DNA of 64,000 bases from Candidatus Latescibacterota bacterium (GTDB lineage Bacteria > Krumholzibacteriota > Krumholzibacteriia > WVZY01): the NCBI GenBank assembly GCA_963791045.1, contig CAWBQK010000011.1, forward strand, positions 288,001-352,000, given 5' to 3'. The position numbers and the translations under genes were made by a program. Under the pieces are notes generated by a model. That model was not told the DNA's origin. It saw only the letters and a program-made list of their open reading frames with translations, and did not search any database. This document shows, in pieces, positions 18,983-58,291 of this stretch. Each line of letters begins with the position of its first letter. Position 1 is the first letter of the stretch.

Positions 18983-19000
18983 GATCGAACTCCACCTTGC

Positions 19001-19576: not shown

Positions 19577-19585
19577 CTACTGCTC

Positions 19586-20200: not shown

Positions 20201-20299
20201 CAAACCCTTTTTGGTAACGGGAAGCGGATAAGCCGTCGATCCCATCCACGTCGTGTCCGATCGGTGATCTCCCGGGTAACAGACGGCTCTATCCGCTTA

Positions 20300-21860: not shown

Positions 21861-21864
21861 CCGA

Positions 21865-23149: not shown

Positions 23150-23221
23150 GGTTGTTTGATTCTCATGTTGTTGGTTGCTCGTTGTTCCCGGAGCGCGCAT
23201 GCCTGCGCCCCGGCGGGTTTG

Positions 23222-28511: not shown

Positions 28512-28645
28512 CGTCACAAACCCTCGATTTTCAACGTCCTTCTTCAAAATCATACCATTTCAAATCGGAATAAATGTTTTGTCGGGTTGAACGTCACCTG
28601 GCTGCAACCGGATATATATAAATAGGTTATAGCGCCCGTGAAATT

Positions 28646-28660
28646 TGGCATGTGAGTTGC
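28646..28660 (+). promoter_or_regulatory. Sigma54 promoter of the first gdh operon
   Basis: TGGCATG-TGAG-TTGC, with a UAS-like ATTTCAAATCGGAAT at 28557-28571. Confidence 0.8.
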
Positions 28661-28839
28661 CGTCGTACTTCCTGTATAGTTAAATATCACTTGATTTTAT
28701 CGGCGGTGGCGAGTGGAGCGGATGATGGCGGATGAGAATGGGGATTACAACCGGCCGAAAAACAAGATTGCATTGACCGCACCATTAAACGATTGAGAAC
28801 CCTTTGGTTTTCCGTGGGAGGAGGCGACAGGTAATCATT

Positions 28840-30156: not shown

Positions 30157-30223
30157 CGACCATCGTACGCGGCCGGGGAGCGTATTAGCCGTGTAATTTC
30201 TTCCGGAAGTGATGATAACTGCC

Positions 30224-31969: not shown

Positions 31970-32007
31970 CCGGTCTGCACTTAAATGCAACGCCAAAGGC
32001 GGAGGGC

Positions 32008-36342: not shown

Positions 36343-36464
36343 GATGTCCCCTGTAAACCAGAGCCAAAACTTTTTGCGGCCCGTCCGTGCGAGTGCCGGG
36401 GCAGAGGTGTTGAAGAGTGGCTGGGAATGTCGGGCGGGCCGCAATTGCCTAAATGGAGGAAGTT

Positions 36465-40661: not shown

Positions 40662-41677
40662 TCGATCTCAACACGATCTGGTTTGTCTTGTTTGGTGTCC
40701 TTATTGCCGGGTACGCGATCCTCGACGGGTTCGATCTCGGTGTCGGGGTGCTGCACCTCTTTGGCCGGAGCGACAACGAGAGGCGAATTCACATAAACGC
40801 AATCGGTCCGGTGTGGGACGGAAACGAAGTGTGGCTCCTCACCGCCGGTGGGGCGCTTTTTGCTGCCTTCCCGAGGGTCTATGCGACGGTTTTTAGTTCG
40901 TTCTACCTCGCGCTGGTGCTGCTTCTCGTCTTTCTCATCATGCGGGCCGTGTCCATGGAGTTCCGTGGAAAGGTCGAGTCGCTCGGGTGGCGGAAATTCT
41001 GGGACTGGTCGTTTGGACTTGGGAGTCTTGGGCCGGCGCTTCTCTTTGGTGTCGCGGTGGGGAACATCCTCCGCGGGATACCGATTACGGATGACCGGGT
41101 GTTTACGGGCTCATTCTTTGGGCTGTTGAACCCCTATGCGCTTCTTATTGGTGTACTGAGTCTTGTGATGTTTACTATGCACGGGGCGCTCTACATGACA
41201 CTCAAGACTGACGGCGATCTCCAGGAGCGAATGAAAGCGTGGGCGACAAAATCATGGGTCGCATTTGTTGTTTTGTATGTTGCCGCCACCATCGCGACGT
41301 TTTTTGTGTCATCGTTTCTCTTTGAAGGGGTTCTCGGGAACGCGATCTTCTGGATCTTCTTTGTGTTGTTGCTCGTGTCGATCCTCTATATCCCGGTGGC
41401 GACAAACGCGAGACGGTACTGGGCGGCGATGCTCGCGAGCGCTCTCACCATTATCTCGATGATAGGGCTTGCCGCGGTGAGTATGTTCCCGGTGCTCGTT
41501 CCGTCGACGCTTGATCCCGTATACAGTTTGACGGCATACAACGCCGCTTCGACGCCAAGGACGCTCACAGTGATGCTCGTTATAGCGCTCGTCGGAATGC
41601 CGATTGTGATCGGGTACACGATTTACATTTATCGCGTGTTCAAGGGAAAGGTCGTGATCACCGAGGATAGTTATTGA
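40658..41677 (+). CDS. cydB: Cytochrome bd oxidase subunit II
   Basis: ILDGFDLGVG, PVWDGNEVW, FAAFP; ATGA overlap with cydA. Confidence 0.96.
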   Translation: MIDLNTIWFVLFGVLIAGYAILDGFDLGVGVLHLFGRSDNERRIHINAIGPVWDGNEVWLLTAGGALFAAFPRVYATVFSSFYLALVLLLVFLIMRAVSMEFRGKVESLGWRKFWDWSFGLGSLGPALLFGVAVGNILRGIPITDDRVFTGSFFGLLNPYALLIGVLSLVMFTMHGALYMTLKTDGDLQERMKAWATKSWVAFVVLYVAATIATFFVSSFLFEGVLGNAIFWIFFVLLLVSILYIPVATNARRYWAAMLASALTIISMIGLAAVSMFPVLVPSTLDPVYSLTAYNAASTPRTLTVMLVIALVGMPIVIGYTIYIYRVFKGKVVITEDSY

Positions 41678-41709
41678 GATGTGAATGATCTGATAGGAAC
41701 CTGTTGCGT

Positions 41710-43485
41710 ATGAATTCTGACGATATCACCAAAAAGCAAGCCGATCATTTGAAGTACGCCGGGCCGTCGGTTCGGACCGACGACCGATATTTCCGTCTCC
41801 TTAGTTACGAGCTGCTCAAGCTCTCGACCAGGGGGCTGTTAAGGAGAGATTTTCTCCCCAAGGTCGCAGAGATGATCAGGAAACACTGTGGATGCGAGGT
41901 GACGGAAATTTGGGTCAAGGAGGGATCGGATAAACATTTTCGATGCACAGTGAGCGGTCTGAAAAAGATGCCCTTTGGTTTTATTCTCGTGCCCTGCCCG
42001 TTGGGCGACGAGACGGATGCGTCCTTAGATGATACAGGCGAGATGAGTATTGAAAGGGTATGCTGTGAGGTGATCAAAGGGCGCGCGGCGGGTTTGTTTC
42101 CCCAGGTTACTAAACGAGGCAGCTGCTGGGATAACGGTGCCGAGGACGTGGTGGGGTCAGACGATCCCGCCGGACAAACCTCGGTGGCGAGGGTCACGCG
42201 GCGCCAAGGTTACTACAAAAGCAGGGCGTTGATTCCCATCCAACTGGAAGGGGAATGCGTGGGGCTCTTGCAGCTAAAGAGTCAAAACGCGGGGTTTTTT
42301 GCGGCGGATGATATTGGGTTTTTCGAGGACATTTCGGCTGTGCTCGGGATTGCACTCTCACATCAGTATGCCCACATCGAACTAAGGGAGCGGATCAAGG
42401 AGCTTACCTGTCTATACGGAATCGCCCGTGTGATTGCACAACCGGAGAGTTCGCTCGACGAGATTATTCAAGGGATCGTTGATCTGCTTCCACCCGCGTG
42501 GTTATACCCGGAGATTGCCAGCGCCCGCATAGTTTTGAACGACCGTGAATACACGACGGACGGTTATCGAGAGACACCCTACCGTCTCGTGTCGGACATC
42601 ATCGTGAACCGGCAGAAGATCGGTTTCGCGGAAGTTGCCTATCGTGAAATAAAGCTCACGCTGGACGAGGGTCCTTTTCTGTCCGAGGAGAGGAAACTCC
42701 TGGACAGCGTGGCTCGTGAGATTGCCAATTTCTTCGAACTTACAAAGGGTGAAAAAGAAAAGACCCTACTTCAAGACCAGCTGAGACATGCGGACAGGCT
42801 GGCAACCATCGGACAGCTTGCCGCTGGCGTGGCCCATGAACTGAATGAACCCCTGGGCAACATCCTTGGTTTGGCTGAGCTGGCTAGGAAGTCGCCGGAC
42901 CTTCCCGCACAGCTCGAAAAAGATCTGGAGGACATTGAAGCCGCATCGCTTCATGGCAGAGAAATCATCAAAAAGCTTATGACATTCGCGCGTCAGCTTC
43001 CACCACAGAAAGTTCTCGTCAACCTGAACGATGTCGTGTCCAACGCCTTGTACTTTTTCGAGGCCCGCTGCGCAAAAGCGGCAATCGAAATCGAGTATAG
43101 ACTGTTCCCCGATTTGCCAAAGATCACGGTCGATCCGGGGCAGATACAGCAGGTTCTGGTGAACCTGGTTGTCAATGCCATTCAAGCAATGCCGGGAGGG
43201 GGCGTGCTTACGGTGGAGACACGAGCGGTTGACGGGGGAGCCCGTCTGAGCGTTGGAGATACCGGAGAGGGAATCAACGATGAGAACAAGAGCCAGGTGT
43301 TCTTGCCGTTCTTTTCGACGAAAGACGTGAACGAGGGCACCGGCTTGGGCCTTGCGGTGGTTCATGGTATCATTCACGCGCATGGTGGTGAGGTCACGTT
43401 CGAAACAACGATCGGAAAAGGCGCGAGATTTGATGTTTATCTGCCGCTGGCGGCACCCAACGGATCCGAACGGATGAGCGAATGA
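41710..43485 (+). CDS. Cytoplasmic GAF sensor histidine kinase
   Basis: GAF-like domain, then the [10 protein letters not shown] domain, H-box [29 protein letters not shown]. No TM helix. Confidence 0.9.
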
Positions 43486-44834
43486 AAAACGAGACAGAGC
43501 GAGAGCACATTCTGATAGTGGACGACTCTCCGAAAACATTGGAAATGCTCGAACGGCATCTCCGGTCCGAGGGATACGAGGTAGTAGCAGCTACGGGTGT
43601 TGCGGAGGCTATCACTCTACTCGACGATACGGCTGTGGATCTGGTGATCACGGATTTGAAGATGCCCGAAATCTCGGGAATGGACCTGGTTCGTTACGTC
43701 CGCGAGAACCTGAAGACAACCGAAGTGATGATGATCACAGGTTACGCCACCGTTGAGGGTGCCGTCGATGCGATCAAGGCGGGTGCTGAGGAGTATCTGA
43801 CGAAACCTTTTACTGCGGACGAGCTCTTTTCCGCCGTCCGGCGGGCTCTCGATAAACTCAAGCTTCGAATGGCCAGCCTGGATCAGACACCACAGGATAT
43901 CAGATCTCAATACGGCATTCTCGGTGAATCGGAACCCGTCAACAAGGTGTTGAAGGCTATTACCAAGGCGGCGTCGACTGCGGCTACGGTGTTGATCACC
44001 GGTCAGAGTGGCACCGGCAAAGAACTGGTGGCCAGAGCGATACATTACAGCAGCAAACGTGTGTCAGCGCCATTCGTGCCGGTCAACTGCGGAGGAATCC
44101 CGGAGAGCCTGTTGGAAAGCGAGTTGTTTGGTTACGTCAAAGGTGCCTTTACGGGGGCGCTGGAGTCCCGGGCGGGTTTCTTCCAAACCGCCGATGGCGG
44201 TACGATTTTTCTGGATGAAGTCAGCGAGACGAGTCTCGCCATGCAGGTCAAACTCCTCAGGGTTCTTCAGGAAAGGGAAGTTTGCATGGTCGGCTCCGCG
44301 CAGTCGAGAAAAGTCAACGTGCGGGTTCTCGCAGCCACGAACAAGGATCTCTTGAGCCTGGTCAAAAAAGGCACCTTTCGCGAGGATCTTTTTTATCGGT
44401 TGAACGTGATCGAAATAGCGATTCCGCCGCTGCAGGCGAGGGGAGACGACATCATTCTTCTCACCAATCATTTTACGCGCAAGTACTCCAAGGAGGCGGA
44501 GAAGACGGAGCCTCGCTTCTCGGACAAGGCGCTGGAAATATTAAGAAACTATGCCTGGCCGGGAAACGTCCGAGAACTCGAAAACATGGTGCACAGCGTT
44601 GTCGTGATGGCGGATTCCGAGTTCATCGATGTGCCCGATCTCCCCGCACTGATGCATCATTCGGACGTGCCGGAAAAAGGGGTGCACAGGACACTGGTCG
44701 AGGTGGAGTCTGAACACATCCGCAATGTGCTGGCGTCAGTGAGTGGCAACAAGGGCCGTGCGGCCTCCATTCTTGGCATCGACCGGAAAACCTTACGGCG
44801 GAAAATAAAAGACCTCGAAGAAGACGCTGTGTAA
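43482..44834 (+). CDS. NtrC-family sigma54 response regulator
   Basis: Receiver (IVDD, ITDLKMP, KPF), GQSGTGKE, GAFTGA, WPGNVREL, and a Fis-type HTH. Confidence 0.95.
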   Translation: MKNETEREHILIVDDSPKTLEMLERHLRSEGYEVVAATGVAEAITLLDDTAVDLVITDLKMPEISGMDLVRYVRENLKTTEVMMITGYATVEGAVDAIKAGAEEYLTKPFTADELFSAVRRALDKLKLRMASLDQTPQDIRSQYGILGESEPVNKVLKAITKAASTAATVLITGQSGTGKELVARAIHYSSKRVSAPFVPVNCGGIPESLLESELFGYVKGAFTGALESRAGFFQTADGGTIFLDEVSETSLAMQVKLLRVLQEREVCMVGSAQSRKVNVRVLAATNKDLLSLVKKGTFREDLFYRLNVIEIAIPPLQARGDDIILLTNHFTRKYSKEAEKTEPRFSDKALEILRNYAWPGNVRELENMVHSVVVMADSEFIDVPDLPALMHHSDVPEKGVHRTLVEVESEHIRNVLASVSGNKGRAASILGIDRKTLRRKIKDLEEDAV

Positions 44835-45068: not shown

Positions 45069-45083
45069 TGGCACGTCACTTGA
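45069..45083 (+). promoter_or_regulatory. Probable sigma54 promoter with a variant -12 element
   Basis: TGGCACG-TCAC-TTGA: perfect -24, GA instead of GC at -12. Confidence 0.55.
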
Positions 45084-45218: not shown

Positions 45219-45416
45219 ATGGTTCGCGATCCCTCTGGAATGCGGAAGGACGATGAGGGGCAACCCGAAAGCAACCGTACGCATCATGAAGAACACGCGA
45301 AAGACCGAAAGGTTTACAAGGGTTTGTGTGCGAGCTGCGCACACCGTGAAACCTGTCTTTTGCCCGAGGCCGAGGGTGGGGTGTGGCACTGTGAACAATA
45401 TGTTGAAGAGTGTTGA
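45219..45416 (+). CDS. Small Cys-rich protein
   Basis: YKGLCASCAHRETC..GGVWHCEQY; first ORF of the operon. Start uncertain. Confidence 0.55.
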   Translation: MVRDPSGMRKDDEGQPESNRTHHEEHAKDRKVYKGLCASCAHRETCLLPEAEGGVWHCEQYVEEC

Positions 45417-45464: not shown

Positions 45465-46316
45465 ATGAAACCAAATGACTCAGCCGCCGCCGTTGATAAA
45501 GCTGTAGGAGAAGAAGAGGGTCTCATAGCCCGAATGGAACGTATCCAGGCAACGTATGGCTATCTCCCGCAAGAGAAGCTGGAAAAACTCGCCGAAGAAA
45601 CAGGCCGCTCCCTCGTGGATATCTATGGAGTAGCCACTTTTTATAAGGCATTCAGTTTGAAACCGAGGGGAAAACATCTCGTTTCCGTTTGTCTGGGTAC
45701 GGCCTGTCACGTTCAAGGCGGTCCAAGGATCGCGGAGGCTTTCCAAAAAGAACTGGGAATTCAATCGGGGGAGACCACAACCGACCGCGAGTTCTCTCTG
45801 GAGACCGTCAACTGTCTGGGTGCGTGTGCTCTGGGCCCCGTCGTCGTGGTGGATGGCCATTACTTTTCCAAAGTTCGAACGACCGAGGTCAAGGGGATCA
45901 TTGAACAAACCCGTAAGGGGCTGGATCTCGTGGAAATCGAAACGGATGAACGTGTTTTCCCGGTTGAGGTGAGCTGCTCGCGCTGCAATCACAGCCTCAT
46001 GGATCCACGGCATGTCATCGACAGTCACCCGTCCATTCGCGTAACTGTTTCTTTTGGTGACAAGCACGGTTGGTTGGCTCTTTCGGGCCTGTATGGAAGC
46101 TACCGAGTGGCGTCAGAGTATGAGATACCGATCGACGAGGTCGTGCATATGTTCTGTCCCCACTGTCATGCGGAGTTCATTGGCAGCAGCCGCTGCAGCG
46201 ACTGCGCGGCACCGATGGTTCCCATGATTGTACGTGGCGGAGGGGTCGTCCAGATCTGTGCCCGCCGCGGCTGCCGGGGTCACATGCTGGATCCGGGTGG
46301 CGTGCCTCTGGAATAG
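45465..46316 (+). CDS. NuoE/HydC-like [2Fe-2S] subunit with an extra C-terminal Cys-rich domain
   Basis: GYLP, GVATFY, VCLGTACH, VNCLGACALGP; extension CSRC..CPHC..CSDC..ICARRGCRGH. Confidence 0.88.
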   Translation: MKPNDSAAAVDKAVGEEEGLIARMERIQATYGYLPQEKLEKLAEETGRSLVDIYGVATFYKAFSLKPRGKHLVSVCLGTACHVQGGPRIAEAFQKELGIQSGETTTDREFSLETVNCLGACALGPVVVVDGHYFSKVRTTEVKGIIEQTRKGLDLVEIETDERVFPVEVSCSRCNHSLMDPRHVIDSHPSIRVTVSFGDKHGWLALSGLYGSYRVASEYEIPIDEVVHMFCPHCHAEFIGSSRCSDCAAPMVPMIVRGGGVVQICARRGCRGHMLDPGGVPLE

Positions 46317-46357
46317 ACATTTTGTTCGTTTGAACACTCATAGAGAGAGGTGTAGCG

Positions 46358-49300
46358 GTGAACAGGGTATCAAGCGTCTTGGAGTTTTCCGGGCTTCGTG
46401 AGCGCATTCAAGATGACAAAAAGATCCAGTATGAAAAACCTACCCTGGTTGTGTGCGCCGGTACGGGAGGGCAGGCCAGCGGGTCGAACGACGTCTTGCG
46501 GATAATCAAGCGATACATCCTCGACCGGAGTCTCCAGACAAAGATCGGGCTGAGGGTAACGGGGTGTCAGGGTTTTTGTGAAATGGACCCGTTTATCGTC
46601 GTGGAGCCCGGACGGCATCTATATCCGAAGCTCAAAATGGAGGATGTCCCGCACGTGATCGACGCCGCGGTTGGTGGATTTGTTGATGAAAGTCTGATCT
46701 ACAGAGACCCGCATGAGAAAAAGCAGTACCACAACCAGGACGACATTCCCTTCTTCAAAAAGCAAAAACGTTTGATTCTGGGGGACAACCAGAAGCTCGA
46801 TCCCATCCGGATCTTCAACTACATCGAATTGGGTGGGTATGCGGCGACGGAAAAAGTGTTATCGAACCTCGATCCGGAATGGATCGTCGAAGAAGTAAAA
46901 AAATCAGGATTGCGGGGGCGTGGTGGAGCCGGTTTTCCGACGGGGAAGAAATGGGAGCTTGCCCGGGCTTCCGGAAGACCGGATGAACAAAAATACATCG
47001 TCTGTAATGCCGACGAAGGAGACCCCGGAGCCTACATGGACCGCAGCCTATTGGAAGGCAATCCCCACGCAATCATCGAAGGGCTGCTGATCGGTGGGAT
47101 CGCGATCGGTGCCACCAGGGGTTGATTTATGTTCGCAGCGAGTATCCGATCGCCATCAAACACAGCATCATAGCGCTTCGGCAGGCTCGTGACATGGGGA
47201 TTCTGGGAACAAACATTCTTGGGACTGGGGTTGATTTCGACATCAAGATAGTTCGCGGTGCGGGTGCATTCGTATGTGGGGAGGAGACGGCACTCATAAA
47301 ATCCGTCGAGGGATTTATCGGTGAACCGCGGCAGCGGCCGCCTTATCCGATCGAAAAAGGGATCGGGGGACATCCCACATGTATCAACAACGTCGAAACT
47401 CTCGCCAATATTCCCGTCATCATCGATCCGGAGTGGCGGGGATGCCTACGCGAGGATTGGCGTCCCTGGAAACACGGGCACAAAGATCTTCTCTCTTGTC
47501 GGTAAAATCCAGAACACGGGTCTGGTGGAGGTCCCGCTGGGAATCAAGATATCGGAAGTCGTTTATGACATTGGCGGCGGAGCCTCTGGAAAAGCCAAAA
47601 TCAAGGCCGTTCAAACCGGCGGACCGTCGGGAGGATGCATTCCCGCCCGAATGTTCGATCTACCCATCGACTATGACAGCCTGGTGAAGGCGGGTTCCAT
47701 CATGGGATCGGGCGGCATGATCGTCATGGACGAAGAAACATGCATGGTGGACGTCGCCAAATATTTCATGGGTTTTCTCAAGGATGAATCCTGCGGCAAG
47801 TGCTTCACGTGCCGTAAAGGCACACAGCGTATGTACGAGATCCTCGACGACATTTCAAAGGGCAAGGCGACCCTTGAGGATCTGGATTTACTCGAAGAGC
47901 CTGGCCTATGTCGTCAAGGATACGACGATGTGCGGTCTCGGCCAGTCCGCATCGAATCCCGTGATCAGCACGCTGCGCTATTTCCGGGAAGAGTACGAAA
48001 GGCACATCGTCGAAAAGCGTTGTGATGCCTACGTGTGCAAGGATCTGGTCGGTGCTCCGTGTCAGTCCGCGTGTCCGTTGGGAACCGAGGCGTGGCGATA
48101 CGTCGCCCATATCGGACACGGTGAATACGAGGAAGCCTATCGAGTGATCCGTGAGGCCAACCCCTTCCCGTCGGTCTGTGCTCGAGTCTGCGATCACCCG
48201 TGCGAGACGAAGTGCCGTGCCGGCGCCACGGGCGGCAGCTCGGTGGCCATACGGGCTTTGAAGCGTTTTGTCGCCGATCGTGTCGATCCTTCGGTTTTCA
48301 ACCCGGTGGCGGAGGATTGGTCGGAAGGGACTCCACCGAGGGTCGCCATTATTGGCGCAGGGCCCGCCGGGCTGAGTGCGGCGCACTATTTGTCCCTCAA
48401 AGGTTGCAAGGTCACGGTATTCGAAGCGGAAAAGGAACCCGGCGGCATGCTGACCTGTGCAATCCCTTCATATCGTCTGCCGCGTGAAGTGATCGAAAAA
48501 GAAATCGATGCGCTGCTCGATGGAAATATCACGCTCAAGTGCGATGTTGCTCTGGGCCGAGACATCGATATCGATGGGTTGTTCGAGGAGGGTTACCAGG
48601 CGGTTCTTCTCGCGATCGGCGCTCACAAAAGCAAGCCGCTCCAGCTCGAAAATGAAGATGTCGAGGGTGTCTATCCCTCGATCGAATTCCTGAAGGCTTT
48701 CAATCTTCAGAAGCAACAACTGGCAAAGGGCAATGTTGGTGTGATCGGCGGCGGTAACTCGGCCATCGATGCCGCCCGTATGGCGCTCCGTCTCAAGGAC
48801 GTCGATAAGGTCACAATCCTTTACCGGCGAACCCGAGAGTGAGATGCCGGCGTTCGCCGAGGAGATCGAAGCGGCGGACCAGGAAGGGATCCACATCGAT
48901 ACCCTTGTCTCGCCCGTCGGGATAGTTAGCTGAAAGCGGACGCCTGACAGGACTCGAATGCATCCGTAACGAGCTTGGTGATGCGGATGCCAGCGGCCGG
49001 CGCAGGCCGGTTCCGATTGCCGGCACTGAACACGAAATCGAACTCGATACGTTGATCGTTGCTATCGGGGAAGATACCGGCATCGACGCCATCACACCGG
49101 CGAAATCGAGCCAGCTCGAAATCACCTCGTGGAACACGGTTCGGGTCAACCCCACAACAATGCAAACCAATCGCCCCGGTGTTTTTGCCGCGGGGGATGT
49201 CGTCCGCGGACCCAACACGGTGGTCGAAGCAATCAGCGACGGCAAGAGAGCGGCTGTCATGATCGAGCGGTTTCTCAAAAAAGAACCTTTGCTCCAGCCG

Positions 49301-49549
49301 TTCCAACCAAACATTCCCCGGGTCTACGTCGAACCGGTTCTCGACGAAGCGGCGTTAGCCGTTGACCGGTCGGAGACGCCCCGCGCGGCGGCGGATTGGC
49401 GCAAACGCAACTTCGCAGAGGTGGAGGTGTCAATGTCTCAAACGGAAGCCGCGCGGGAGGCCCGGCGATGTTTGCGGTGCGATCTCGAGTTCACCGGCCA
49501 AAAGAAAGAAAAAGATAAAGAATCCAAAACGGGGAGGCAGAGCGCGTGA
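46358..49549 (+). CDS. NuoF/HydB-like subunit fused to a GltD-like FAD oxidoreductase; about five frameshifts (near 47120, 47430, 47900, 48840, 48928)
   Basis: Colinear motifs across ORFs 46358, 47122, 47321, 47784 and 49052: [78 protein letters not shown]. Confidence 0.85.
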
Positions 49550-50254
49550 TTACCGTCAGGATAAATGGATTGGATGTGTCGGTAGAGAAGGGAACGACGC
49601 TTCTGGAAGCCGCTCAGTTTTTGGGATTTCCGATTCCCACGCTGTGTCACATGGAGGGACTGTCGCCTTACGGAGCCTGTCGACTCTGTGTAGTTGAGAT
49701 CGGAGAGGGAGACAGAGCAAAACTCGTGACATCCTGCACCCATCCGGTTCAAGAGGGGCTGGTTGTCAGGACCGCATCATCGCGCGTGGTGAAGGCCCGC
49801 AAGATGATCATCGAGCTGCTGCTGGCATCGTGTCCGCAATCCAAGGTGATACAGGATCTGGCGGCAAAACACGATGTCCGACACGCAGCGGTTCAAACAA
49901 GAATACGAAGACTGCATTCTCTGCGGTTTGTGCGTGCGGATGTGTGAAGAACAAATGGTTGCAAAGGCAATCGGTTTTCAAGGCAGGGGGGATAATCGCA
50001 CCATCGGTACCCCTTTCAATATCAAGACGGAGGTTTGCCGCCAGTGCGGCGGCTGCATATACGTCTGTCCCGCTTGCTCGCTTCGTTGTACGTACAACGA
50101 ACCGGAAAAAGCGGTTTGCGGGGGGTGTGCGAATCTCGGCCCTCCGTGCCTGGAAAAGGATCAGTTCGACGACATGATGTGCTACATGGATCCCTGTGTG
50201 GCCTGCGAGATAGTAAAAGACGACAATAAGTTGTCCGAGAAAAAGAAAAGCTAG
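49546..50254 (+). CDS. NuoG/HydA N-terminal-like Fe-S protein ([2Fe-2S] + 2x[4Fe-4S]), frameshift near 49884
   Basis: IPTLCH, GACRLC, TSC; then CILCGLCVRMC, CRQCGGCIYVCP and a further Cys-rich tail. No H-cluster or molybdopterin domain. Confidence 0.82.
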
Positions 50255-50273
50255 CGAAAAGGAGCAGAACAAA

Positions 50274-51864
50274 ATGTCTCAAACACTGTCTAGAGTCAAC
50301 TCTTCCGCGGCGACTCTGACCAAGAACAGGACAGAAGGATTCCGTCACACCAGGCTCCGGCATGTGCGTCACCTGTGTGGATGGTTGTATCGGCATGTGC
50401 GAGATCGGCAAGTCCGCTTACCGGGGGCATGAGGTCATCTACCCGCAGCCGTTTGGCGTGATTACGACCGCATCGGAAAAAGTGTATCCGGTCGACTATT
50501 CTCATTTCAACATCATGGGTACCGCCGTGGGAGCTCATGGTATCGAGGCGGATTCGGATAAAGCTATCTTTCCGGCTGTAAACCTCGAAGTGCATTTTGG
50601 TCACGACAAAGGAATCAAGTTCCGGCTCCCGTGGATTATTCCCGGCATTGGTTCCACTAACATCGCCAAAAACAACTGGGAAGGGCTGGCCATCGGGTCG
50701 GCATTGGCCGGCACCGGTCTGACCATCGGCGAAAATGTTGTTGGGATGGATCCCGAGGCGATTATTCGAGATGGGCAGATCGTTGACACGGTGGATCTGA
50801 AAAGACGTGTGAAGCTTTATCAGGATCATCAGCGCGACGGCTACGGCGCGATTATCGTCCAGGCCAACGTGGAAGACACGAGGCTGGGTGTCCAGGAGTA
50901 TGCCGTAAAGGAGCTGGGTGTCGAAGTCGTTGAGTTGAAGTGGGGGCAAGGGGCCAAAAACATTGGCGGCGAGGTCAAGATCACGGATTTGAAGAAAGCC
51001 CAGCTGCTCTACGAACGCGGATACGTTGTGCTTCCCAATCCTACCGACCCTCATGTCATCGAGGCATTCGAACGAGGTTCGTTCAAAGAGTTCGAAAGGC
51101 ATTCGCGAGTCGGTATGGTGACCGAGGAGTCCTTTGCCCAACGAGTAGAAGAACTACGGAAGGCCGGCGCCAAGTACGTGTTCTTGAAGACGGGTGCTTA
51201 CCGGCCCGCCGATCTGGCACGGGCCGTAAAATTTTCTTCCAAATACAACATCGATCTTCTCACGGTAGACGCGGCCGGCGGCGGCACGGGAATGAGTCCG
51301 TGGCGAATGATGAATGAATGGGGAATGCCGCCTGTCGAACTCCATTCTCTCCTCTACGCCTACACGAAGAGACTGGCCGACAGGGGAGAGCATGTGCCGG
51401 GACTTACGGTGGCCGGTGGGTTCACGTTCGAAGACCAGATCTTCAAAGGCCTGGCGTTGGGCGCACCGTTCGTAAAACTCGTAGGCATGGCGCGTTCTCC
51501 GATCGCCGCGGCAATGGTGGGCAAAACGATTGGGCGGACCATTGAGGATAACGAAATCCCGGTGTATGTGGAGCGTTTTGGCAGCACCAGGGACGAGATC
51601 TTTGTCACCGCGCCCGAACTGCGCAAAGAGTTGGGTAACGAAATGTTTGAAAAGATTCCGACGGGAGCGATCGGCCTTTACACCTATTACGAACGCCTTG
51701 CTCAGGGGCTGCGCCAGTTGATGTGCGGATCGCGTAAATTCGATCTGAGCCATATCACGCGTGACGATCTCGCCGCATTGACGCGGGAAGCCGCCGATAT
51801 CAGCGGAATCAAATTCTTGACGGACGTGGACCGCGAAGAGGTGAACGAGATACTCGACACATAG
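50274..51864 (+). CDS. Stand-alone FMN-binding glutamate synthase family protein, frameshift near 50340
   Basis: ATG 50274 after AAGGAG reads MSQTLSRVNSSAATLTKNRT and shifts into CVTCVDGCIGMC; ELKWGQGAK, LKTG, DAAGGGTG, AGG, GMAR. Confidence 0.85.
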
Positions 51865-51939
51865 GATGGCCGGGGAGTTTGTGACGGGCATATGGTGCGG
51901 GGACCTCGGCTATCCACCATCCGGGAACAGGTGGGTATT

Positions 51940-53694
51940 ATGGCGGATAAAAACAACGGCTCCAACCCCCGGAAAACTCCGGGTTCCGACACAACCTCAA
52001 CCGATGGTCGCGGTTGCTTTCGCATGATCGGAACTGGAGAGATCGGAGGAAAGGCGGGGGGGCTCGCGCGGCTCGAGGAGATACTTGCACGCGACCTGGA
52101 CAGGGGCGTTTGCGCGGATGTTGAAGTAGAGATTCCGTGGTTTTGGGTGGTAGCCACCGACTGGTTCGACATGTTCATGGAAAAGAACCGGCTATACGAC
52201 ATCGCCCTGTCGGATGCCAAGGATCAGCATATCGCCAGCGCGTTTCAACGGGCGGAATTGCCCGAGGAACTGGTTCAGGAGTTAAAGAACCTTATTGCCG
52301 AGGTTCACACTCCGCTGGCTGTCAGATCCTCGGGACTTCTCGAAGATGCCCTCAACGAACCGTTTGCCGGTGTTTACGGGACCAAGATGGTTCCCAATAA
52401 CCAGTTCAGCGTGGACGGGCGTCTCCGCACCCTCATCGAGGCGATCAAGTTTGTTTACGCCTCGACTTTCTCCCGGGATGCCAAAAGCTACCGCGAAGCG
52501 ATGGGCCGTTCGCACGATGACGAGAAGATGGCGGTCATGATCCAAGAAGTGGTAGGTTTGCGCCACGGTGACCGTTTCTATCCGAATCTTTCAGGCGTGG
52601 CACGCTCGCACAACTTCTATTCGTTTGGCGGTGCCCGGCCGGAGGAAGGCGTCGTCAGCCTGGGGCTGGGTTTGGGAAAGACTATCGTGGATGGGGGAAG
52701 GAGTTGGACTTACTGCCCAGCCTACCCAAAGGCGAAGCCGCCCTTTGGATCCACAAAAGAACTTCTCGAGCAAACCCAGACGCTATTCTGGTCCGTGAAC
52801 ATGGCTAAACCACCGACATTCGATCCGATCCAGGAAACGGAATACCTTTTCGAGGGAAACCTTGCCGATGCCGAGAAAGACGGGGTACTTCCGCCAATGG
52901 CATCGACATATGACCCGCAATCCGACCGAATCACGATCGGTACGGGATCGCCCGGACCCCGCGTACTGGACTTTGCTCCATTACTCGTACTCAACCAAAT
53001 CCCGTTGAACGATCTCGTCAAACACCTTTTGAAGATTTGTGAGAATGATCTGGGCAATCCCGTCGAGATCGAATTCGCCGTTGATTTCGAGCCAGGCTCG
53101 GCGAAGCGCGCGCGGTTTGGTTTTCTCCAGGTGCGTCCGATGTACGTCTCAGAAGATCAAGTGGTAATTGAAGAGGCTGAGCTTTGTGGGGAGAATGTTT
53201 TCGTCGCATCGGAGCAGGTTCTGGGTAATGGGCAACTGGATTCGATAAAGGACGTGGTTTATGTAAAACCAGATGCCTTCTCATCGAAAGATACATGGCT
53301 CATCGCGGGGGAGTTAGAAGAGATGAACCGACATCTCGTCAAAGCGGTACGCCCATATCTCCTTGTTGTATTCGGCCGCCTAGGCACCTCGGATCCGTGG
53401 CTGGGGATACCCGCGACGTGGGGCCAGGTGTCCGGTGCGAAGGCAATCGTTGAGTCATCGACGAGCACGATGAATGTGGACATGAGTCAAGGATCTCACT
53501 TTTTTCACAACGTCACGTGTCTCCGTATCTTCTATTTTTCGGCAGACAAGACCGGGCGACTTCCCGTCGATTGGGAATGGTTGGAGCGCCAGCAGGAGGT
53601 CCGTCAGTCACGGTTCGTCCGTCACGTGGAGTTGGATGATCCGCTCCACATCAAGGTTGACGGAAACAGTGGCCGGGGGGTGATCGGTCATTAA
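51940..53694 (+). CDS. PPDK/PEP-synthase N-terminal (ATP-grasp) domain protein, short form 2
   Basis: Colinear paralog of 30224: GGKAGGL, PLAVRSSGLLED, FAGVYGTKM, DPWLGIP, SQGSHFFHN. Confidence 0.85.
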   Translation: MADKNNGSNPRKTPGSDTTSTDGRGCFRMIGTGEIGGKAGGLARLEEILARDLDRGVCADVEVEIPWFWVVATDWFDMFMEKNRLYDIALSDAKDQHIASAFQRAELPEELVQELKNLIAEVHTPLAVRSSGLLEDALNEPFAGVYGTKMVPNNQFSVDGRLRTLIEAIKFVYASTFSRDAKSYREAMGRSHDDEKMAVMIQEVVGLRHGDRFYPNLSGVARSHNFYSFGGARPEEGVVSLGLGLGKTIVDGGRSWTYCPAYPKAKPPFGSTKELLEQTQTLFWSVNMAKPPTFDPIQETEYLFEGNLADAEKDGVLPPMASTYDPQSDRITIGTGSPGPRVLDFAPLLVLNQIPLNDLVKHLLKICENDLGNPVEIEFAVDFEPGSAKRARFGFLQVRPMYVSEDQVVIEEAELCGENVFVASEQVLGNGQLDSIKDVVYVKPDAFSSKDTWLIAGELEEMNRHLVKAVRPYLLVVFGRLGTSDPWLGIPATWGQVSGAKAIVESSTSTMNVDMSQGSHFFHNVTCLRIFYFSADKTGRLPVDWEWLERQQEVRQSRFVRHVELDDPLHIKVDGNSGRGVIGH

Positions 53695-53710: not shown

Positions 53711-56700
53711 GTGATCAATCTTCTCGAATCCCTCACTGAGCGGGCCAAGGAGTTGACCTGTCTCTATGCCATTGAAGAGGCGTTGAAAGAACCGGATGCG
53801 GATATCGATCGGGTTTGTGAACGTATCATCGAAGCGATTCCGCCGGGATGGCAATACCCGGACATCTGTGTCGCCGAGATCATTTTGGAGGGCATACAGT
53901 GCTGCCGTTCTCCTAATTTTGAAGAAACTCCCTGGCATTTGAAAACAGACATCGTTCAACAGGATCATGTGGTTGGGTCCATCGGAGTATATTACACCAA
54001 AGAGATGCCGCCGGTCGATATCGGTCCCTTTCTTAACGACGAGCAAAAGCTTATCGAGTCTATCGCAGACCGACTGAATCATTTTGTAATTTACAAGAAA
54101 ATGCAGCACGTTCTGCAGGAATGGCGGAACGGAAAAGGGGCGTTGTCGGAGACGGGCCGCGCGGATTGGGAGGCGGTGTTAGACCTTGTTCGCCAGACAG
54201 ACCATGCGCTTTTTCTTCGAATCGCCAACAAAATGCTCAATCATCTGTGTTGGAGCGGTATCGAAGAGGCAGAGACTCTGCGGCCGATGGCCGACACCCA
54301 GAAAATCGCTGCCGGCAATCTGCAGGATGGTGACGTTGAGGGGCCGCGGTTGAGCCGGTTATTGGATTTCTCTGCCGAGTTTACCGAGAGGCTTTTCCGG
54401 ATCGCAGCAAATAATTTGAGCGGGGAAGAAATTCTTTCCCGTATTCAAATGTGGATACAGGAAGACAAGATTGGTGCATTGCACCGGACCGTGCGCCGCC
54501 GTCTCCCTCTCTCCGAGGTTTCCAGCAGGTTGCGGCACTACTTTTTTACGACCCGGGACGAATCGTACGATCGTTATCCCGTCGCCAGAGGTTTAAAGGT
54601 TCTCCTTATCGAGTCGGTTCTGTCAGACCGGCTGGAATATATTGATGCGGCGAAGGATCATGTCGATATCGATGACCTCTACCATCTTCTCCAGAAGGTA
54701 ATATTCTCCGCGGATAGCCACGGAAAGCTCGGGGGAAAGAGTGCCGGGCTCATTTTGGCGTCACAGATTTTGAAGAAAACAAACGGTGGAGGAAATCCGG
54801 CGTTCCGCTTTCCCAAGACGTGGTATATCTCTTCGGACATGATGCTCGAGTCTATTCACTACAACAACATGGATGAGGTTATCGAGCAGAAATACAAAGA
54901 CATCGAAAGAGTCCGGCTCGAATATCCACACGTGATCGAAATGTTCCAGAAAACAGTTCTGCCCCCCGAAATGGTCAATGGTTTGTCCGCGGCTCTCGAC
55001 GATCTCGGAGAAAACCCCATCGTTGTACGCAGTTCATCGCTTCTTGAGGACCGTACGGGAGCGCCATTTGTTGGGTTGTACAAAAGCGTGTTTCTGGGAA
55101 ACCAGGGGCCGCGGGAGGAACGTCTCCGCCGTTTGATATCAGCGGTGACCGAGGTTTACGCGTCGAATTTTGGCCCGGATCCGATCGAGTTTCGAGCGGC
55201 CCGCGATCTGTTGGAATTGAGCGAGCAGATGGGCATCATGATCCAGCAAGTTGTAGGGGAGCGAGTCGGGCCGTATTTTTTGCCCGTGTATTCGGGGGTG
55301 GCAAGCAGCCGGATGGGGTTTCGATGGCTTCCCGATGTTGCGGAAGACAGCGGTATTGTACGCATCATGCCTGGACTTGGGACTGGAGCCTTGCGTCGAA
55401 ATCGCGAGGAACACCCCGTACTCGTTATTCCCGGGCACCCGTCGGCCGCGGTCTACGGATCTTCGGAAGAACGTATTTGTGAGGCGCCATCAAAAATCGA
55501 TGTGATCAATCTCGAGACCAACAGTATCGAAACGATCAAGATCAGCGAATTGATGACGCAATATGGAAGTGAGTTTCCGCTCGTGGAACAGATCATGTCC
55601 GAGTACAAGGACGGCGAGCTATTGCCTGTATCACCGGCTGAAAATCCGTTTAGCCTCGAAAACCAGAGACTGGTGGTCACATTCGATGGACTGCTCACAC
55701 GCAGCCCGTTTGTAGCCCAGATCCGAACTCTTCTTCGAACACTCGAGGAAGAACTCGGATCGCCCGTTGAGGTCGAGTTCGCATCGGATGGCAAGCACCT
55801 GCACATTCTACAATGCCGCACCCAAACCCCGGCGGGGATGCCCCGGCCGGCTCCTATACCCAAGGAACTGACCAGAAACCAGCTCGTCTTCTCGACGAGA
55901 CGATTTGTGTCGAACGGGCGGGCATCTAATATCACACACACCGTCTATGTGGATCCGGAGTCTTACGCCAGTATCGAAGACCCGGCGGACCGCGGCGCCA
56001 TAACACGAATTGTTTCGAGACTAAACGAATTGCTTCCCAAGAGACAGTTTGCGCTCATCTGGCCCGATCGGTTTGCCACCCATCGAGATGAGGGCGGAGC
56101 CAGTATATGTCATCGTGATTTCGATAACGCCGCCGCCCTGATTGAATTGTCCGAGCCCGAAGAAGAGAACAGCGGAAAAGCGCCCGTCGGTTTGCATGTC
56201 CTCCACGATCTCGCGGAGTCCGGAGTTCTTTATCTTCCGTTGACACCGGGTGACGAAGGGACAACGTTCAACGAACGCTTCCTCAGGCGTTCCCGCAATG
56301 TCTTCCCAGAGCTTTTTCCCGAGTATGCTCACCTTGCCGATGTGGTTCATGTGGTCGATGTTCCGAAGGTGACGGACGGAAAAGTCTTGCAGGTGTTGAT
56401 GAACGCTGAACTTGGCGAAGCCGTTGGATTGCTTTCGGATCCTGGAGAAAAGATGGGATACCCCGAGGAAAGGGAGCCCGTCGAAGATGGACGCCCCGAA
56501 GATTACTGGCGTTGGCGTCACCGCATGGCCGAACAGATTGCCGGGCAGTTGGATCCGGTACGCTTCGGGGTCGAACGTATTTATCTTTTTGGCAGCACGA
56601 AGAACGGTACCGCAGGCCCGGGAAGCGATATCGACATTCTGGTTCACTTTAAGGGTACGAAATCCCAGAGAGAATTGCTCGTCCAGTGGTTGGAGGGTTG

Positions 56701-56884
56701 GAGTCTTTGCCTCGATGAAATCAACTACCTTCGGACGGGATACCGAGCAGGCGGCTTGCTCGACTTTCACATCATCACCGATAAAGATATCGCAAAGAAG
56801 ACAAGCTATGCCGTCAAAATCAACGCCGTCACTGATGCGGCGCGTCCGTTGAATATGAAAGAAACCAGCGATGATGCACGGTAG
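53711..56884 (+). CDS. Sensor domain + PPDK-like ATP-grasp + nucleotidyltransferase protein, long form 2 (partly degenerate)
   Basis: Colinear paralog of 32008: [41 protein letters not shown]. Confidence 0.85.
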   Translation: MINLLESLTERAKELTCLYAIEEALKEPDADIDRVCERIIEAIPPGWQYPDICVAEIILEGIQCCRSPNFEETPWHLKTDIVQQDHVVGSIGVYYTKEMPPVDIGPFLNDEQKLIESIADRLNHFVIYKKMQHVLQEWRNGKGALSETGRADWEAVLDLVRQTDHALFLRIANKMLNHLCWSGIEEAETLRPMADTQKIAAGNLQDGDVEGPRLSRLLDFSAEFTERLFRIAANNLSGEEILSRIQMWIQEDKIGALHRTVRRRLPLSEVSSRLRHYFFTTRDESYDRYPVARGLKVLLIESVLSDRLEYIDAAKDHVDIDDLYHLLQKVIFSADSHGKLGGKSAGLILASQILKKTNGGGNPAFRFPKTWYISSDMMLESIHYNNMDEVIEQKYKDIERVRLEYPHVIEMFQKTVLPPEMVNGLSAALDDLGENPIVVRSSSLLEDRTGAPFVGLYKSVFLGNQGPREERLRRLISAVTEVYASNFGPDPIEFRAARDLLELSEQMGIMIQQVVGERVGPYFLPVYSGVASSRMGFRWLPDVAEDSGIVRIMPGLGTGALRRNREEHPVLVIPGHPSAAVYGSSEERICEAPSKIDVINLETNSIETIKISELMTQYGSEFPLVEQIMSEYKDGELLPVSPAENPFSLENQRLVVTFDGLLTRSPFVAQIRTLLRTLEEELGSPVEVEFASDGKHLHILQCRTQTPAGMPRPAPIPKELTRNQLVFSTRRFVSNGRASNITHTVYVDPESYASIEDPADRGAITRIVSRLNELLPKRQFALIWPDRFATHRDEGGASICHRDFDNAAALIELSEPEEENSGKAPVGLHVLHDLAESGVLYLPLTPGDEGTTFNERFLRRSRNVFPELFPEYAHLADVVHVVDVPKVTDGKVLQVLMNAELGEAVGLLSDPGEKMGYPEEREPVEDGRPEDYWRWRHRMAEQIAGQLDPVRFGVERIYLFGSTKNGTAGPGSDIDILVHFKGTKSQRELLVQWLEGWSLCLDEINYLRTGYRAGGLLDFHIITDKDIAKKTSYAVKINAVTDAARPLNMKETSDDAR

Positions 56885-56926: not shown

Positions 56927-58291
56927 ATGGCCTCGTATGTTCAAAAGCTGATGGCCGAGGTTCGATCGAAAAACCCCGCCGAACTCGAATTTCACGAGGT
57001 CGTCCAGGATCTTGCCGAGTCTCTGATCCCTGTCCTGGAGCGCAACCCCCACTACGCCGAAGCCAGGATTCTCGAACGGATAATTGAACCTGAACGGACA
57101 CTGGGGTTTCGCGTTTCCTGGGTGGACGACGCGGGCCGCATCCAGATCAACCGCGGTTACCGTGTTGAAATGAACGGTTCGATTGGGCCCTACAAAGGTG
57201 GCCTTCGATTTCATCCCTCGGTCAACCAGAGCATCTTCAAGTCCCTCGCTTTGGAGCAAGTGTTCAAGAACAGTCTCACCACGTTACCGTTGGGTGCAGG
57301 AAAGGGTGGGTCTGATTTCGATCCTAAAGGAAAGAGCGATCATGAGGTCATGCGTTTTTGCCAGGCCTTCATGAACGAGCTGTATCGTCACATCGGCCCG
57401 AACACCGATATTCCGGATGGTGACATTGGTGTTGGCGGCCGTGAAATCGGGTACCTGTTCGGCCAATACCGCAAGCTCAAGAACGAGTTTACGGGTGTGT
57501 TGACCGGAAAAGGGCTCGGTTGGGGAGGCTCGGTGATGCGGCCGGAAGCGCCGGGTTACGGTGTCGCCTATCTCGCCGAAGAGATGCTTGCCACAAAAGG
57601 CGAAGCCCTCGAAGGCAAGACGTGCCTGGTTTCAGGGAGCGGGAAAGTAGCACAGTTTGTCATGGAAAAGCTAATCGATCTTGGCGCGAAGGTTGTTACG
57701 TTCTCGGATTCAAGCGGTTGTGTATACGATTCGGATGGTGTCGACCGCGAGAAACTGGAATGGCTCAAGGAACTCAAGAACGTACGCAGGGGCCGCACGA
57801 TGGATTATGCAAAGGAATATCCGAGCGCCGAGTACCTGTCGGCGGATGCGGGTGATCTCGACGAAAATGCTATTTGGACCCGAAAAGGGGATTGTGCCTT
57901 TCCCTGTGCCACACAGAACGAGATTAGTCGTAAAGATGCCGAGAATCTTCTTCAAAACGGAATCCAACTGGTTTGCGAAGGGGCTAGCATGCCCACGACG
58001 CCTGAAGGGATAAAGCTTTTTATCGATCGGCGCGTTCTTTACGCCCCGGGAAAAGCGGCGAACGCGGGTGGTGTGGCGGTATCGGGTCTGGAAATGGCGC
58101 AGAACAGTGCTCGCTACCCCTGGACTCGTGACGAGGTGGATACGCGGCTCCGATTGATCATGAAAGGAATCCACGATGCCTGTTTGACGGCTGCCGTGGA
58201 GTATGGCACGCCGGGCAATTATGTGAACGGCGCAAACATCGCCGGGTTTATCAAGGTGGCTGATGCCATGCTCGACCAGGGAGTGGTCTGA
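56927..58291 (+). CDS. gdhA: GdhA-type (NADP-specific clade) glutamate dehydrogenase with altered motifs
   Basis: GPYKGGLRFHPSV, EQVFKN, GKGGSDFDPKGKS, PCATQNE, KAANAGGVAVSGLEM, GANIAGF. Confidence 0.88.
   Translation: MASYVQKLMAEVRSKNPAELEFHEVVQDLAESLIPVLERNPHYAEARILERIIEPERTLGFRVSWVDDAGRIQINRGYRVEMNGSIGPYKGGLRFHPSVNQSIFKSLALEQVFKNSLTTLPLGAGKGGSDFDPKGKSDHEVMRFCQAFMNELYRHIGPNTDIPDGDIGVGGREIGYLFGQYRKLKNEFTGVLTGKGLGWGGSVMRPEAPGYGVAYLAEEMLATKGEALEGKTCLVSGSGKVAQFVMEKLIDLGAKVVTFSDSSGCVYDSDGVDREKLEWLKELKNVRRGRTMDYAKEYPSAEYLSADAGDLDENAIWTRKGDCAFPCATQNEISRKDAENLLQNGIQLVCEGASMPTTPEGIKLFIDRRVLYAPGKAANAGGVAVSGLEMAQNSARYPWTRDEVDTRLRLIMKGIHDACLTAAVEYGTPGNYVNGANIAGFIKVADAMLDQGVV

Follow-up and report, generated by a model that had tools for sequence, protein, structure and literature searches.

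For the Bfu enzymes, bifurcating flavin/iron-sulfur oxidoreductases with a HydBC-like module, the third substrates listed by Schut 2022 (PMC9304861) are H2, formate, NADP, F420, CO, pyruvate, aldehydes, aryl-CoA, quinone, and H2O2. There, the BfuB subunit is defined by the domains IPR011538, IPR019554, and IPR019575 together with a C-terminal IPR017896, and BfuC by IPR002023. In the solved Bfu enzymes, the way out to ferredoxin is the C-terminal BfuB domain with two [4Fe-4S] clusters, B3 and B4 (PMC11829005). In a 64,000-nucleotide stretch of DNA from Candidatus Latescibacterota bacterium (GenBank assembly GCA_963791045.1, contig CAWBQK010000011.1, positions 288,001 to 352,000; the whole stretch is hereafter designated the window), we found four tightly packed plus-strand genes (45465..51864) that may add to this list. 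They encode a BfuC/NuoE-like subunit, a BfuB-like NuoF protein fused to a GltD module (NuoF::GltD), a short BfuA-like connector of the NuoG N-terminus type (NuoG-N), and a divergent lone FMN protein of the glutamate synthase (GltS) type. With a probability of roughly 0.55, we take the four products to form a soluble flavin/iron-sulfur oxidoreductase of the HydBC/Bfu kind, whose third-substrate subunit would be the GltS-type FMN protein devoid of an amidotransferase domain.

The Stn (StnABC of Sporomusa ovata, 8oh5) and NfnABC (9n5u) enzymes share with the window proteins a NuoE-like subunit, a HydB-type NuoF with a thioredoxin-like domain and a His/Cys site, and a GltD-like module that binds FAD/NADP(H) and two [4Fe-4S] clusters, the latter completed by a C-terminal RCLxC pair; indeed, their GltD modules are the best match of the window's GltD part among Protein Data Bank (PDB) entries. 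In Stn and Nfn, however, the GltD module is inserted in BfuA, whereas that of the window is placed at the C-terminus of BfuB, where it replaces the B3/B4 domain. Moreover, the BfuA of the window, with 232 residues, lacks both the His-ligated cluster and the Fdh-like domain, a fourth subunit (the GltS-like FMN protein) is present, NuoE carries an additional 8-Cys domain, and a ferredoxin-type domain is lacking in the fused form. Because its GltD module is on another subunit and a subunit is added, the window complex falls outside Stn/Nfn-type Bfu.

GltBD (1ea0, 2vdc, and 6s6s), in turn, has in common with the window proteins the GltD-type NAD(P)H/FAD/2×[4Fe-4S] module and the FMN-binding TIM barrel of the GltS synthase domain, of which the GEGG-like, QGAK, Arg, GGTG, and ALALGA motifs are kept. 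In contrast to GltBD, the window protein contains no amidotransferase, central, or GXGXG domain and no [3Fe-4S] loop, and carries an N-terminal 4-Cys motif; GltD is fused to NuoF, and a NuoE/NuoF/NuoG-type module is added. The absence of the amidotransferase and of the 3Fe-4S loop puts it outside GltS proper. Plausibly, the window complex works like parts of both Stn/Nfn-Bfu and GltS. Resemblance is also seen to BamGHI of class II benzoyl-CoA reductase and to the 'Type 2' Bfu enzymes (PMC9304861; 10.64898/2026.04.10.717634), in which a HydBC-like module feeds a flavoenzyme through a small BfuA-like connector; there, however, HdrA-like and tungsten subunits take the place of the single GltS-like FMN subunit, and in most orthologs of the window operon the ferredoxin domain is replaced by GltD. 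Canonical lone Glu_synthase proteins of the same phylum (~520–570 aa) likewise have one FMN synthase domain and no amidotransferase, but keep the 3Fe-4S loop and score ~300 bits on PF01645.

The same C-terminal GltD fusion as in the window protein is known from sub-type I BfuB, described in 2024 from [FeFe]-hydrogenase clusters of Hydrogenedentota and other phyla (PMC11406978), in which B3/B4 is replaced by DPD_II (Fer4_20) and an FAD/NAD(P) domain. In those clusters BfuA is an H-cluster hydrogenase, whereas a 232-aa connector and a GltS-like FMN partner are found here. An earlier reading of the same DNA from its letters (hereafter the sequence-only reading) had called the whole arrangement new. 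The fusion had been published, and the part of that claim which stands is the GltS-like partner: in the full-text literature searched, which did not include Supplementary Table 1 of PMC9304861, a Bfu/NuoEF module was nowhere found described together with a GltB-like partner. As judged from the predicted domains, the combination of a Bfu/Nfn-like module with a GltS-like putative catalytic subunit appears to be new, and the fusion itself is known.

Subunits of the candidate complex

Relatives of the GltS-like gene were collected in a scan of one genome per species and were found in at least 583 species genomes; the synteny and conservation counts given below rest on the best 80 loci. The first of the four window genes (45465..46316) is intact and encodes a 283-aa BfuC/NuoE-like protein (PF01257, 153 bits) with an extra C-terminal domain containing four Cys pairs, three CxxC and one Cx4C. 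The four [2Fe-2S] Cys residues and the eight C-terminal ones were all conserved in 42/42 sequences.

The NuoF::GltD gene (46358..49549), delineated by Pfam and a frameshift-aware alignment, is spread over five pieces of open reading frame (ORF), in which the domains follow one another in the order Complex1_51K, SLBB, NADH_4Fe-4S, Fer4_20, and Pyr_redox_2. The NuoF set (PF01512, PF10531, and PF10589) and the GltD set (PF14691, Fer4_20; PF07992, Pyr_redox_2) were present both in the window pieces and in an intact ortholog. Against the PDB, the NuoF part matched bifurcating BfuB chains best, at E values of 1e-195 to 1e-159 and with 7t2r_B (1.6e-195), 7q4v_B, 9n5u_B, 8a6t_B, and 8oh5_B at the top, as compared with ~1e-105 for NuoF; this ranking agrees with the sequence-only reading, which had noted HydB-like features, and points to a HydB/BfuB-like rather than a respiratory protein. 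Its N-terminal thioredoxin-like domain gave a weak PF01257 match and aligned to the BfuB chains. The [4Fe-4S] residues Cys478, Cys481, Cys484, and Cys524 and the His/Cys metal site H548, C554, and C559 were invariant in 44/44 fused and 7/7 unfused orthologs; the metal motif, given earlier as H-x4-C-x4-C, reads H-x5-C-x4-C. The N-terminal cluster motif was more variable. The CAGTGG pointed out before (3 of 4 Cys) is indeed present in the window, as a variant peculiar to its clade, many other orthologs having S/PAGTCG and 7/51 the canonical C-x4-C form, CAGT(A/G)C. This N-terminal site of BfuB (B5) can hold zinc and lies off the traced electron pathway (Li et al. 2025, PMC11829005). Both B5 and the His/Cys metal site (B2, occupied by zinc in the solved enzymes) are lacking in non-bifurcating NuoF.

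The GltD part was most similar to NfnA/StnC-type chains (9bov_A, 362 bits; 9n5u_A (NfnA), 334 bits; 8oh5_C, 324 bits), followed by NfnL-type chains (4ylf_B, 282 bits; 5jca_L, 270 bits) and the GOGAT beta subunit (204 bits). All eight cluster-binding Cys residues of this part, including the C-terminal RCLxC pair, were invariant in the 44 fused proteins. The module occupies the exact place of the classical ferredoxin-type 2×[4Fe-4S] domain of BfuB, and the replacement of that domain by GltD, as originally proposed, is upheld by the presence of Fer4_20 and Pyr_redox_2 in the window protein and in 44/51 orthologs. A fused ORF of 1027–1088 aa was found in 44/51 loci and an unfused ORF of ~615 aa in the remaining seven (L035, L039, L047, L057, L063, L071, and L079). 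L035 and L063, the two unfused orthologs scanned, showed the full BfuB Pfam set including the canonical Fer4 dicluster. In a quick maximum-likelihood tree, the unfused forms were nested among the fused ones, at least two changes being needed, and the Hydrogenedentota loci L063 (unfused) and L074 (fused) were sisters with an SH-aLRT value of 99. Because of this nesting, the putative ferredoxin and NADP(H) ports appear to have been swapped at the same BfuB position more than once, and the GltS-like partner was kept on both sides of the swap. If the ports are as supposed, this natural exchange of a ferredoxin domain and GltD at one BfuB position would amount to a ready-made experiment on the low-potential branch of Bfu enzymes. 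Besides its unfused operon, the L057 contig carries a second cluster (10435-15755) with a 1041-aa BfuB::GltD fusion and a NuoG-like gene; this fusion is only 47–50% identical to the query parts, and the cluster is probably a hydrogenase-type one of sub-type I.

The NuoG-N gene (49546..50254, in two ORF pieces) encodes a 232-aa connector, to which Pfam assigned Fer2_4 and a 4Fe-4S dicluster. The motifs for one [2Fe-2S] (Fer2_4) and two [4Fe-4S] clusters are kept, and a Cys-rich C-terminal tail is added. The best PDB match was 9mqx_A, a 247-aa 'chain G-like protein' also devoid of the His/Cys motif for the His-ligated cluster. From its molecule names we assume, as an unconfirmed guess, that 9mqx represents a Bam-type complex.

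The GltS-like FMN protein (50274..51864, ~529 aa), identified by PF01645 and hhalign, is the putative catalytic subunit. The ORF with the Pfam match spans 50362-51864; the true start of the gene, a correction to the sequence-only reading, is at 50274, ahead of a frame change at 50340 within the first 22 codons. The match to PF01645 (Glu_synthase) amounted to 54–60 bits, the cut-off being 20.4 bits, and was confined to profile positions 185–303. When the family was compared by hhalign with seven canonical lone Glu_synthase proteins of the same phylum, the two aligned over 342 columns with a probability of 99.2% (E 2.3e-19). The alignment paired GEGG..PE with GENV..DPE, KxxQGAKxGxGG with KWGQGAKNIGGE, vRG with eRGY, and DGxGGGTGAAP with DGAGGGTGMSP, and the strand containing ALALGA was aligned as well. 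In the Azospirillum enzyme (2vdc_A), the counterparts of the QGAK motif and the Arg residue, reached through the alignment of a canonical protein, are Q934, K937, and R957. The position equivalent to Q978 is Glu in the family, an N-terminal C-x2-C-x3-C-x3-C motif is conserved, and hhalign revealed an insertion of ~40 residues relative to the canonical proteins. Among 1.84 billion representatives, 1089 matches at E≤1e-3 make up a tight cluster. By these profile alignments, the FMN protein is genuinely homologous to the GltS synthase domain, albeit divergent. A canonical-type lone Glu_synthase ORF (L105, C9:43211-44188; 516 aa, 344 bits on PF01645) also occurs in the related genome G007, ~2.5 kb 3' of the GltS-like gene of its operon (L015) and on the same strand.

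Conservation of the operon and the frameshifts in the window

The best 80 loci all came from metagenome-assembled genomes and were distributed over more than 15 phyla, with titles including Latescibacterota, Gemmatimonadota, Planctomycetota, Ignavibacteriales, Zixibacteria, Calditrichia, Acidobacteriota, and Hydrogenedentota as well as Anaerolineales, Spirochaetales, Verrucomicrobia, Kiritimatiellae, Armatimonadetes, WOR-3, Stahlbacteria, and others. The NuoG-N gene lies immediately 5' of the GltS-like gene in 68/68 loci with enough sequence, at a median gap of ~5 nt; a NuoF gene was found in 51/52 loci and a NuoE gene in 46/48. Among the closer relatives, a GltS-like ortholog of 82–91% identity was present in 7/40 genomes, and in three related loci the operon is intact, consisting of the kinase, the regulator, and genes for NuoE-like (283 aa), NuoF::GltD (1061–1116 aa), NuoG-N (226–276 aa), and GltS-like (526–529 aa) proteins. 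Intact orthologs were read directly in the loci of four relatives. Since the gene order is repeated in 80 loci of other genomes, the arrangement goes far beyond chance. The four genes form a conserved operon of uncultured anaerobes.

The GltS-like protein was the most conserved of the four subunits in 39/41 loci, and the median identities across loci were 80% for GltS-like, 77% for NuoG-N, 68% for NuoF, 65% for NuoE, and 60% for GltD. The high conservation of the FMN subunit across phyla suggests that its predicted reaction is constrained and important. Hydrogenase, molybdopterin, and GATase_2 domains were absent from the 46 window ORFs scanned with Pfam, in accord with the earlier statement that the four genes are tightly packed with no hydrogenase, molybdopterin, or amidotransferase domain in the window. 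Moreover, neither GATase_2 (PF00310) nor GXGXG (PF01493) was detected in the whole genome, the completeness of which is 80.9%.

Relative to the intact ortholog, a frameshift-aware DNA alignment revealed seven frame changes, which are located in the last three of the four genes. In NuoF::GltD, one base is missing at ~47123, four are extra at 47428-47434, and one each is extra at 47900, 48837, and 48931; single extra bases are also found at 49882 in NuoG-N and at 50340 in the GltS-like gene. After frame correction, NuoF::GltD can be read through without an in-frame stop and shares 86.3% identity with the ortholog over 1060 codons, and each segment between its frameshifts is 78–94% identical. The region was also compared with contigs from public short reads (four runs with small word shares, at a depth of 2–4). 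Two contig pieces were 98–99% identical to the window, one being 4 nt shorter at 47415-47424 and the other lacking base 49882, so that the frame was restored at both sites they span. As for the correction from reads suggested in the sequence-only reading, the indels were thus missing wherever coverage was available, which was the case for two of the seven sites.

These data indicate that the frameshifts of the window are most probably consensus errors of the assembly. In line with this, RnfC elsewhere in the window is likewise split over two frames, and the assembly, although in only 21 contigs, has a marker completeness of only 80.9%. A cluster of genuine pseudogenes, in which the seven indels are real mutations and the complex is not made in this organism, seems quite improbable. 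It would account for the crowding of seven frameshifts within 3.2 kb, a striking local clustering between flanking genes (0.85–3.2 kb) that are open, and it gains from the fact that none of the seven sites lies in a long homopolymer and that five of them (47123, 47900, 48837, 48931, and 50340) are beyond the reach of the short-read contigs; these points weigh against assembly error. The lack of in-frame stops, the segment identities after correction, the near-identical contigs with both covered sites repaired, the presence of at least one further frameshifted gene (RnfC), and the low completeness for a 21-contig genome all speak against decay. The dead operon named in the sequence-only reading as its refutation is accordingly unlikely, given the intact orthologs, the absence of stops, and the two repaired sites. 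Whichever view of the frameshifts holds, the gene set is intact in other genomes.

Proposed reaction and competing explanations

The candidate complex would be a soluble assembly of four subunits with three ports. NAD(H) would react at the FMN of NuoF, and NADP(H) at the FAD of GltD, in place of which ferredoxin would dock at the canonical domain in the unfused orthologs. Electrons would run through the clusters of the BfuA-like connector and the N-terminal 4-Cys cluster to the FMN of the GltS-like protein, which would interconvert 2-oxoglutarate plus NH3 (via the imine) and glutamate without glutamine, or act on a closely related pair of 2-oxo and amino acids. Expression would be controlled by a two-component system of the sigma54/NtrC type. 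The link to glutamate and 2-oxoglutarate drawn in the sequence-only reading is backed by the retained motifs of the synthase site, the neighbouring genes, and the regulators. In the most speculative step, the strongly exergonic reductive amination by NADH might be coupled in the manner of Bfu enzymes to the reduction of NADP+ or ferredoxin, or the reverse might take place, with glutamate being oxidized. The 2-oxoglutarate/glutamate couple is a high-potential one (about -130 mV), and NADH-driven reduction of 2-oxoglutarate could for this reason drive the reduction of NADP+ or ferredoxin. Schut 2022 (PMC9304861) proposed 'high-potential' Bfu types, to which such an enzyme would be analogous.

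Taken to its full extent, this scheme describes a glutamine-independent, energy-coupling glutamate synthase/dehydrogenase of the Bfu type, in which reductive amination by NADH would drive the reduction of NADP+ in the fused and of ferredoxin in the unfused form, or the reverse, and which would be nitrogen-regulated through sigma54/NtrC and have been passed by gene transfer across more than 15 mostly uncultured anaerobic phyla without canonical GOGAT. We regard this full version as doubtful, and the data fit a simple NAD(P)H-dependent enzyme without bifurcation just as well.

A number of observations weigh against a Bfu-type enzyme with a glutamate-forming FMN subunit. The GltS-like protein covers only a third of the PF01645 profile, and it has no NCBIfam family and no significant sequence match in the PDB; in a profile search of the PDB with the family, the large chains of GltS appeared only at E 0.38, designed TIM barrels being at the top. 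The [3Fe-4S] loop is absent, no Cys residue being found at the place aligned to the canonical C-x5-C-x4-C (GCxxxRxCxxxxCP), and by motif counting the putative Arg is one residue off the canonical spacing, although hhalign aligns the two Arg residues. The role of the QGAK and Arg residues as 2-oxoglutarate/2-iminoglutarate ligands is a putative one, by correspondence to Q969, K972, and R992 of the Synechocystis Fd-GltS structures. On the side of the module, the BfuA-like protein lacks in its alignment the His-ligated [4Fe-4S] motif of NuoG/HydA, and the cluster bound by this motif lies on the electron path of the solved Bfu enzymes (PMC11829005). The ferredoxin-type C-terminal domain (IPR017896), which belongs to the BfuB definition of Schut 2022, is absent from the BfuB of the window. 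Furthermore, a couple of high potential can do without a bifurcating module, and two GDH (glutamate dehydrogenase) genes are already present in the organism. Finally, PF00310 (GATase_2) gave only two weak matches among 41 related genomes, eight of which have the operon; being missing from nearly all of these relatives, it does not allow a complementary distribution with GOGAT to be shown.

The same complex might also act through its FMN subunit on another substrate, either a different 2-oxo or imino acid or one of an unrelated FMN-dependent reduction, in which case the glutamate-related neighbours would reflect shared regulation only. The confinement of the PF01645 score to the FMN-phosphate region, the tight cluster formed by the family, its insertion, the Glu residue in place of Q978, the lack of the 3Fe-4S loop and of the amidotransferase and ammonia tunnel domains, and the variation of the downstream genes in most loci would all be accommodated by such an enzyme. 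We nevertheless consider it rather unlikely, since both the QGAK motif and the Arg aligned to the canonical one are kept, and GDH, glutamine synthetase, NrpR, and canonical gltBD recur in association with the family and its paralog, in different arrangements and phyla. Still further removed is a self-contained NADH-NADPH(-ferredoxin) transhydrogenase of the Nfn/Stn kind made of NuoE, NuoF::GltD, and NuoG-N, with the GltS-like gene as a co-transcribed neighbour outside the complex. The proximity of the GltD module to those of NfnA/StnC and the completeness of the NADH- and NADPH-binding parts without the FMN protein fit this proposal, but the invariable position of the GltS-like gene directly after NuoG-N, its rank as the most conserved subunit, and the lack of a ferredoxin domain in the fused form make it very improbable. 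Moreover, transhydrogenation cannot be the common function, because the seven unfused orthologs, which have no NADPH module, keep the GltS-like gene. A respiratory NuoEFG was rejected on the grounds that BfuB chains match best and that no membrane Nuo genes are adjacent, and a hydrogenase or formate dehydrogenase module on the grounds that no H-cluster, NiFe, or molybdopterin domain was found.

If the Bfu-type complex with a GltS-like subunit is real, a redox reaction between an amino acid and a 2-oxo acid would join the third substrates of Bfu enzymes, and in many uncultured phyla of sediments and digesters (Latescibacterota, Ignavibacteriota, Zixibacteria, Planctomycetota, Acidobacteriota, Hydrogenedentota, WOR-3, and others) nitrogen and glutamate metabolism would have a direct tie to the pools of NADH, NADPH, and ferredoxin. 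Metabolic reconstructions would miss such a unit, because automatic annotation labels its genes NADH dehydrogenase subunits or 'FMN-binding glutamate synthase family protein'.

Regulatory genes and genomic neighbourhood

All features described in this paragraph are on the plus strand. Upstream of the four genes, Pfam identified a sensor histidine kinase (41704..43485; GAF, HisKA, and HATPase_c) and a sigma54-dependent response regulator of the NtrC type (43482..44834; Response_reg, Sigma54_activat, and HTH_8), and a -24/-12 promoter-like element of the sigma54 type, TGGCAC-N5-TTGA, was read from the sequence at 45069..45083. A kinase and a response regulator are located 5' of the operon on the same strand in relatives too; of 27 loci extending 8 kb or more upstream, 21 have an ortholog of the sigma54 regulator on the same strand. 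The strict motif TGGCA[CT]-N5-TTG[CA] occurred within 700 nt 5' of the NuoE gene in 13/47 loci, the rough expectation being ~0.003 per locus strand. A scan for terminators and promoters did no better than shuffled sequences (23 vs 15±3.2). The first gene after the promoter-like element is a small ORF of the ORF list (45219..45416) encoding 65 aa with four Cys residues and the core GLCxxCxxRxxC...EGGVWHCE[EQ]Y; tblastn found relatives in 15 loci of several phyla, and neither Pfam nor NCBIfam gave a match.

Downstream, still on the plus strand, the GltS-like gene is followed after 27 nt by a PPDK_N-like protein of the ATP-grasp type (51892..53694), putatively accessory or regulatory, by a second PPDK_N-like protein (53711..56884) with an N-terminal sensor domain like that of the histidine kinase and a C-terminal NTP_transf_2 domain, and by GDH (56927..58291; ELFV_dehydrog), the last gene before the orientation changes, all assigned by Pfam. 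A PPDK_N-like gene comes after the operon in 17/62 loci and GDH adjoins it in 9/80, in two different arrangements, the genes 3' of the operon being variable in most loci. In L039, a glutamine synthetase gene lies 3' of the GltS-like gene, and the genome of the window itself (80.9% complete) encodes a glutamine synthetase in addition to its two GDH genes.

A paralog subfamily of the GltS-like protein (P0128, ~44% identity), encoded in at least 528 metagenome stretches, has the same N-terminal Cys motif and is likewise linked to GDH and PPDK_N-like genes. In its own best 80 loci no NuoE/F/G-like neighbours were found; an NrpR-type regulator was present in 29/80 and GDH together with PPDK_N-like genes in 9/80. 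NrpR is a 2-oxoglutarate-sensing nitrogen repressor of methanogens. In the paralog loci L120 and L121, a canonical gltB (1569 aa) and gltD lie directly downstream. The paralog loci are L115-L194, with L118 5730-6854 (-) and L121 8681-14918 (+) among them; in four loci, genes with Fer4, CCG, and GltD-like domains are found downstream.

Residues 227-343 of the sensor kinase resemble residues 8-125 of the protein encoded at 53711-56884 (36% identity, E 1e-22 in BLASTP). This domain, common to the kinase and to the PPDK_N-like/nucleotidyltransferase protein, has the core motif KELTCLY...PPxWxYP and was not matched by any Pfam family; the same ligand may be sensed by regulator and enzyme. A second plus-strand cluster of the window (26877-35202) comprises a sigma54 activator of the XylR_N/V4R type, GDH (28804-30156), a PPDK_N-like protein (30209-31969), and a protein with PPDK_N-like and NTP_transf_2 domains (31843-35202) that is 44% identical to that of 53711-56884. 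GDH with two PPDK_N-like proteins is thus a recurring module, present in the window as two parallel sets.

Elsewhere in the window, an Rnf operon on the minus strand (16886-23200) contains an RnfB-like protein (16886-18982, 698 aa; FeS, Fer4, Fer4_20, and Pyr_redox_2) fused to a GltD-like NAD(P)H/FAD module. Its RnfC (21860-23200), with a frameshift near 22226, showed only RnfC_N and a Fer4 dicluster and no match to Complex1_51K. This operon may represent an Rnf variant in which the pyridine-nucleotide site has been moved to RnfB. Immediately upstream of the sensor kinase are an ADP-forming acyl-CoA synthetase carrying a fused GNAT domain (36453-39143) and subunits I and II of cytochrome bd oxidase (39330-41677). 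The POT peptide transporter encoded at 13306-14874 and the M20 peptidase at 25479-26699 fit a peptide-fermenting lifestyle.

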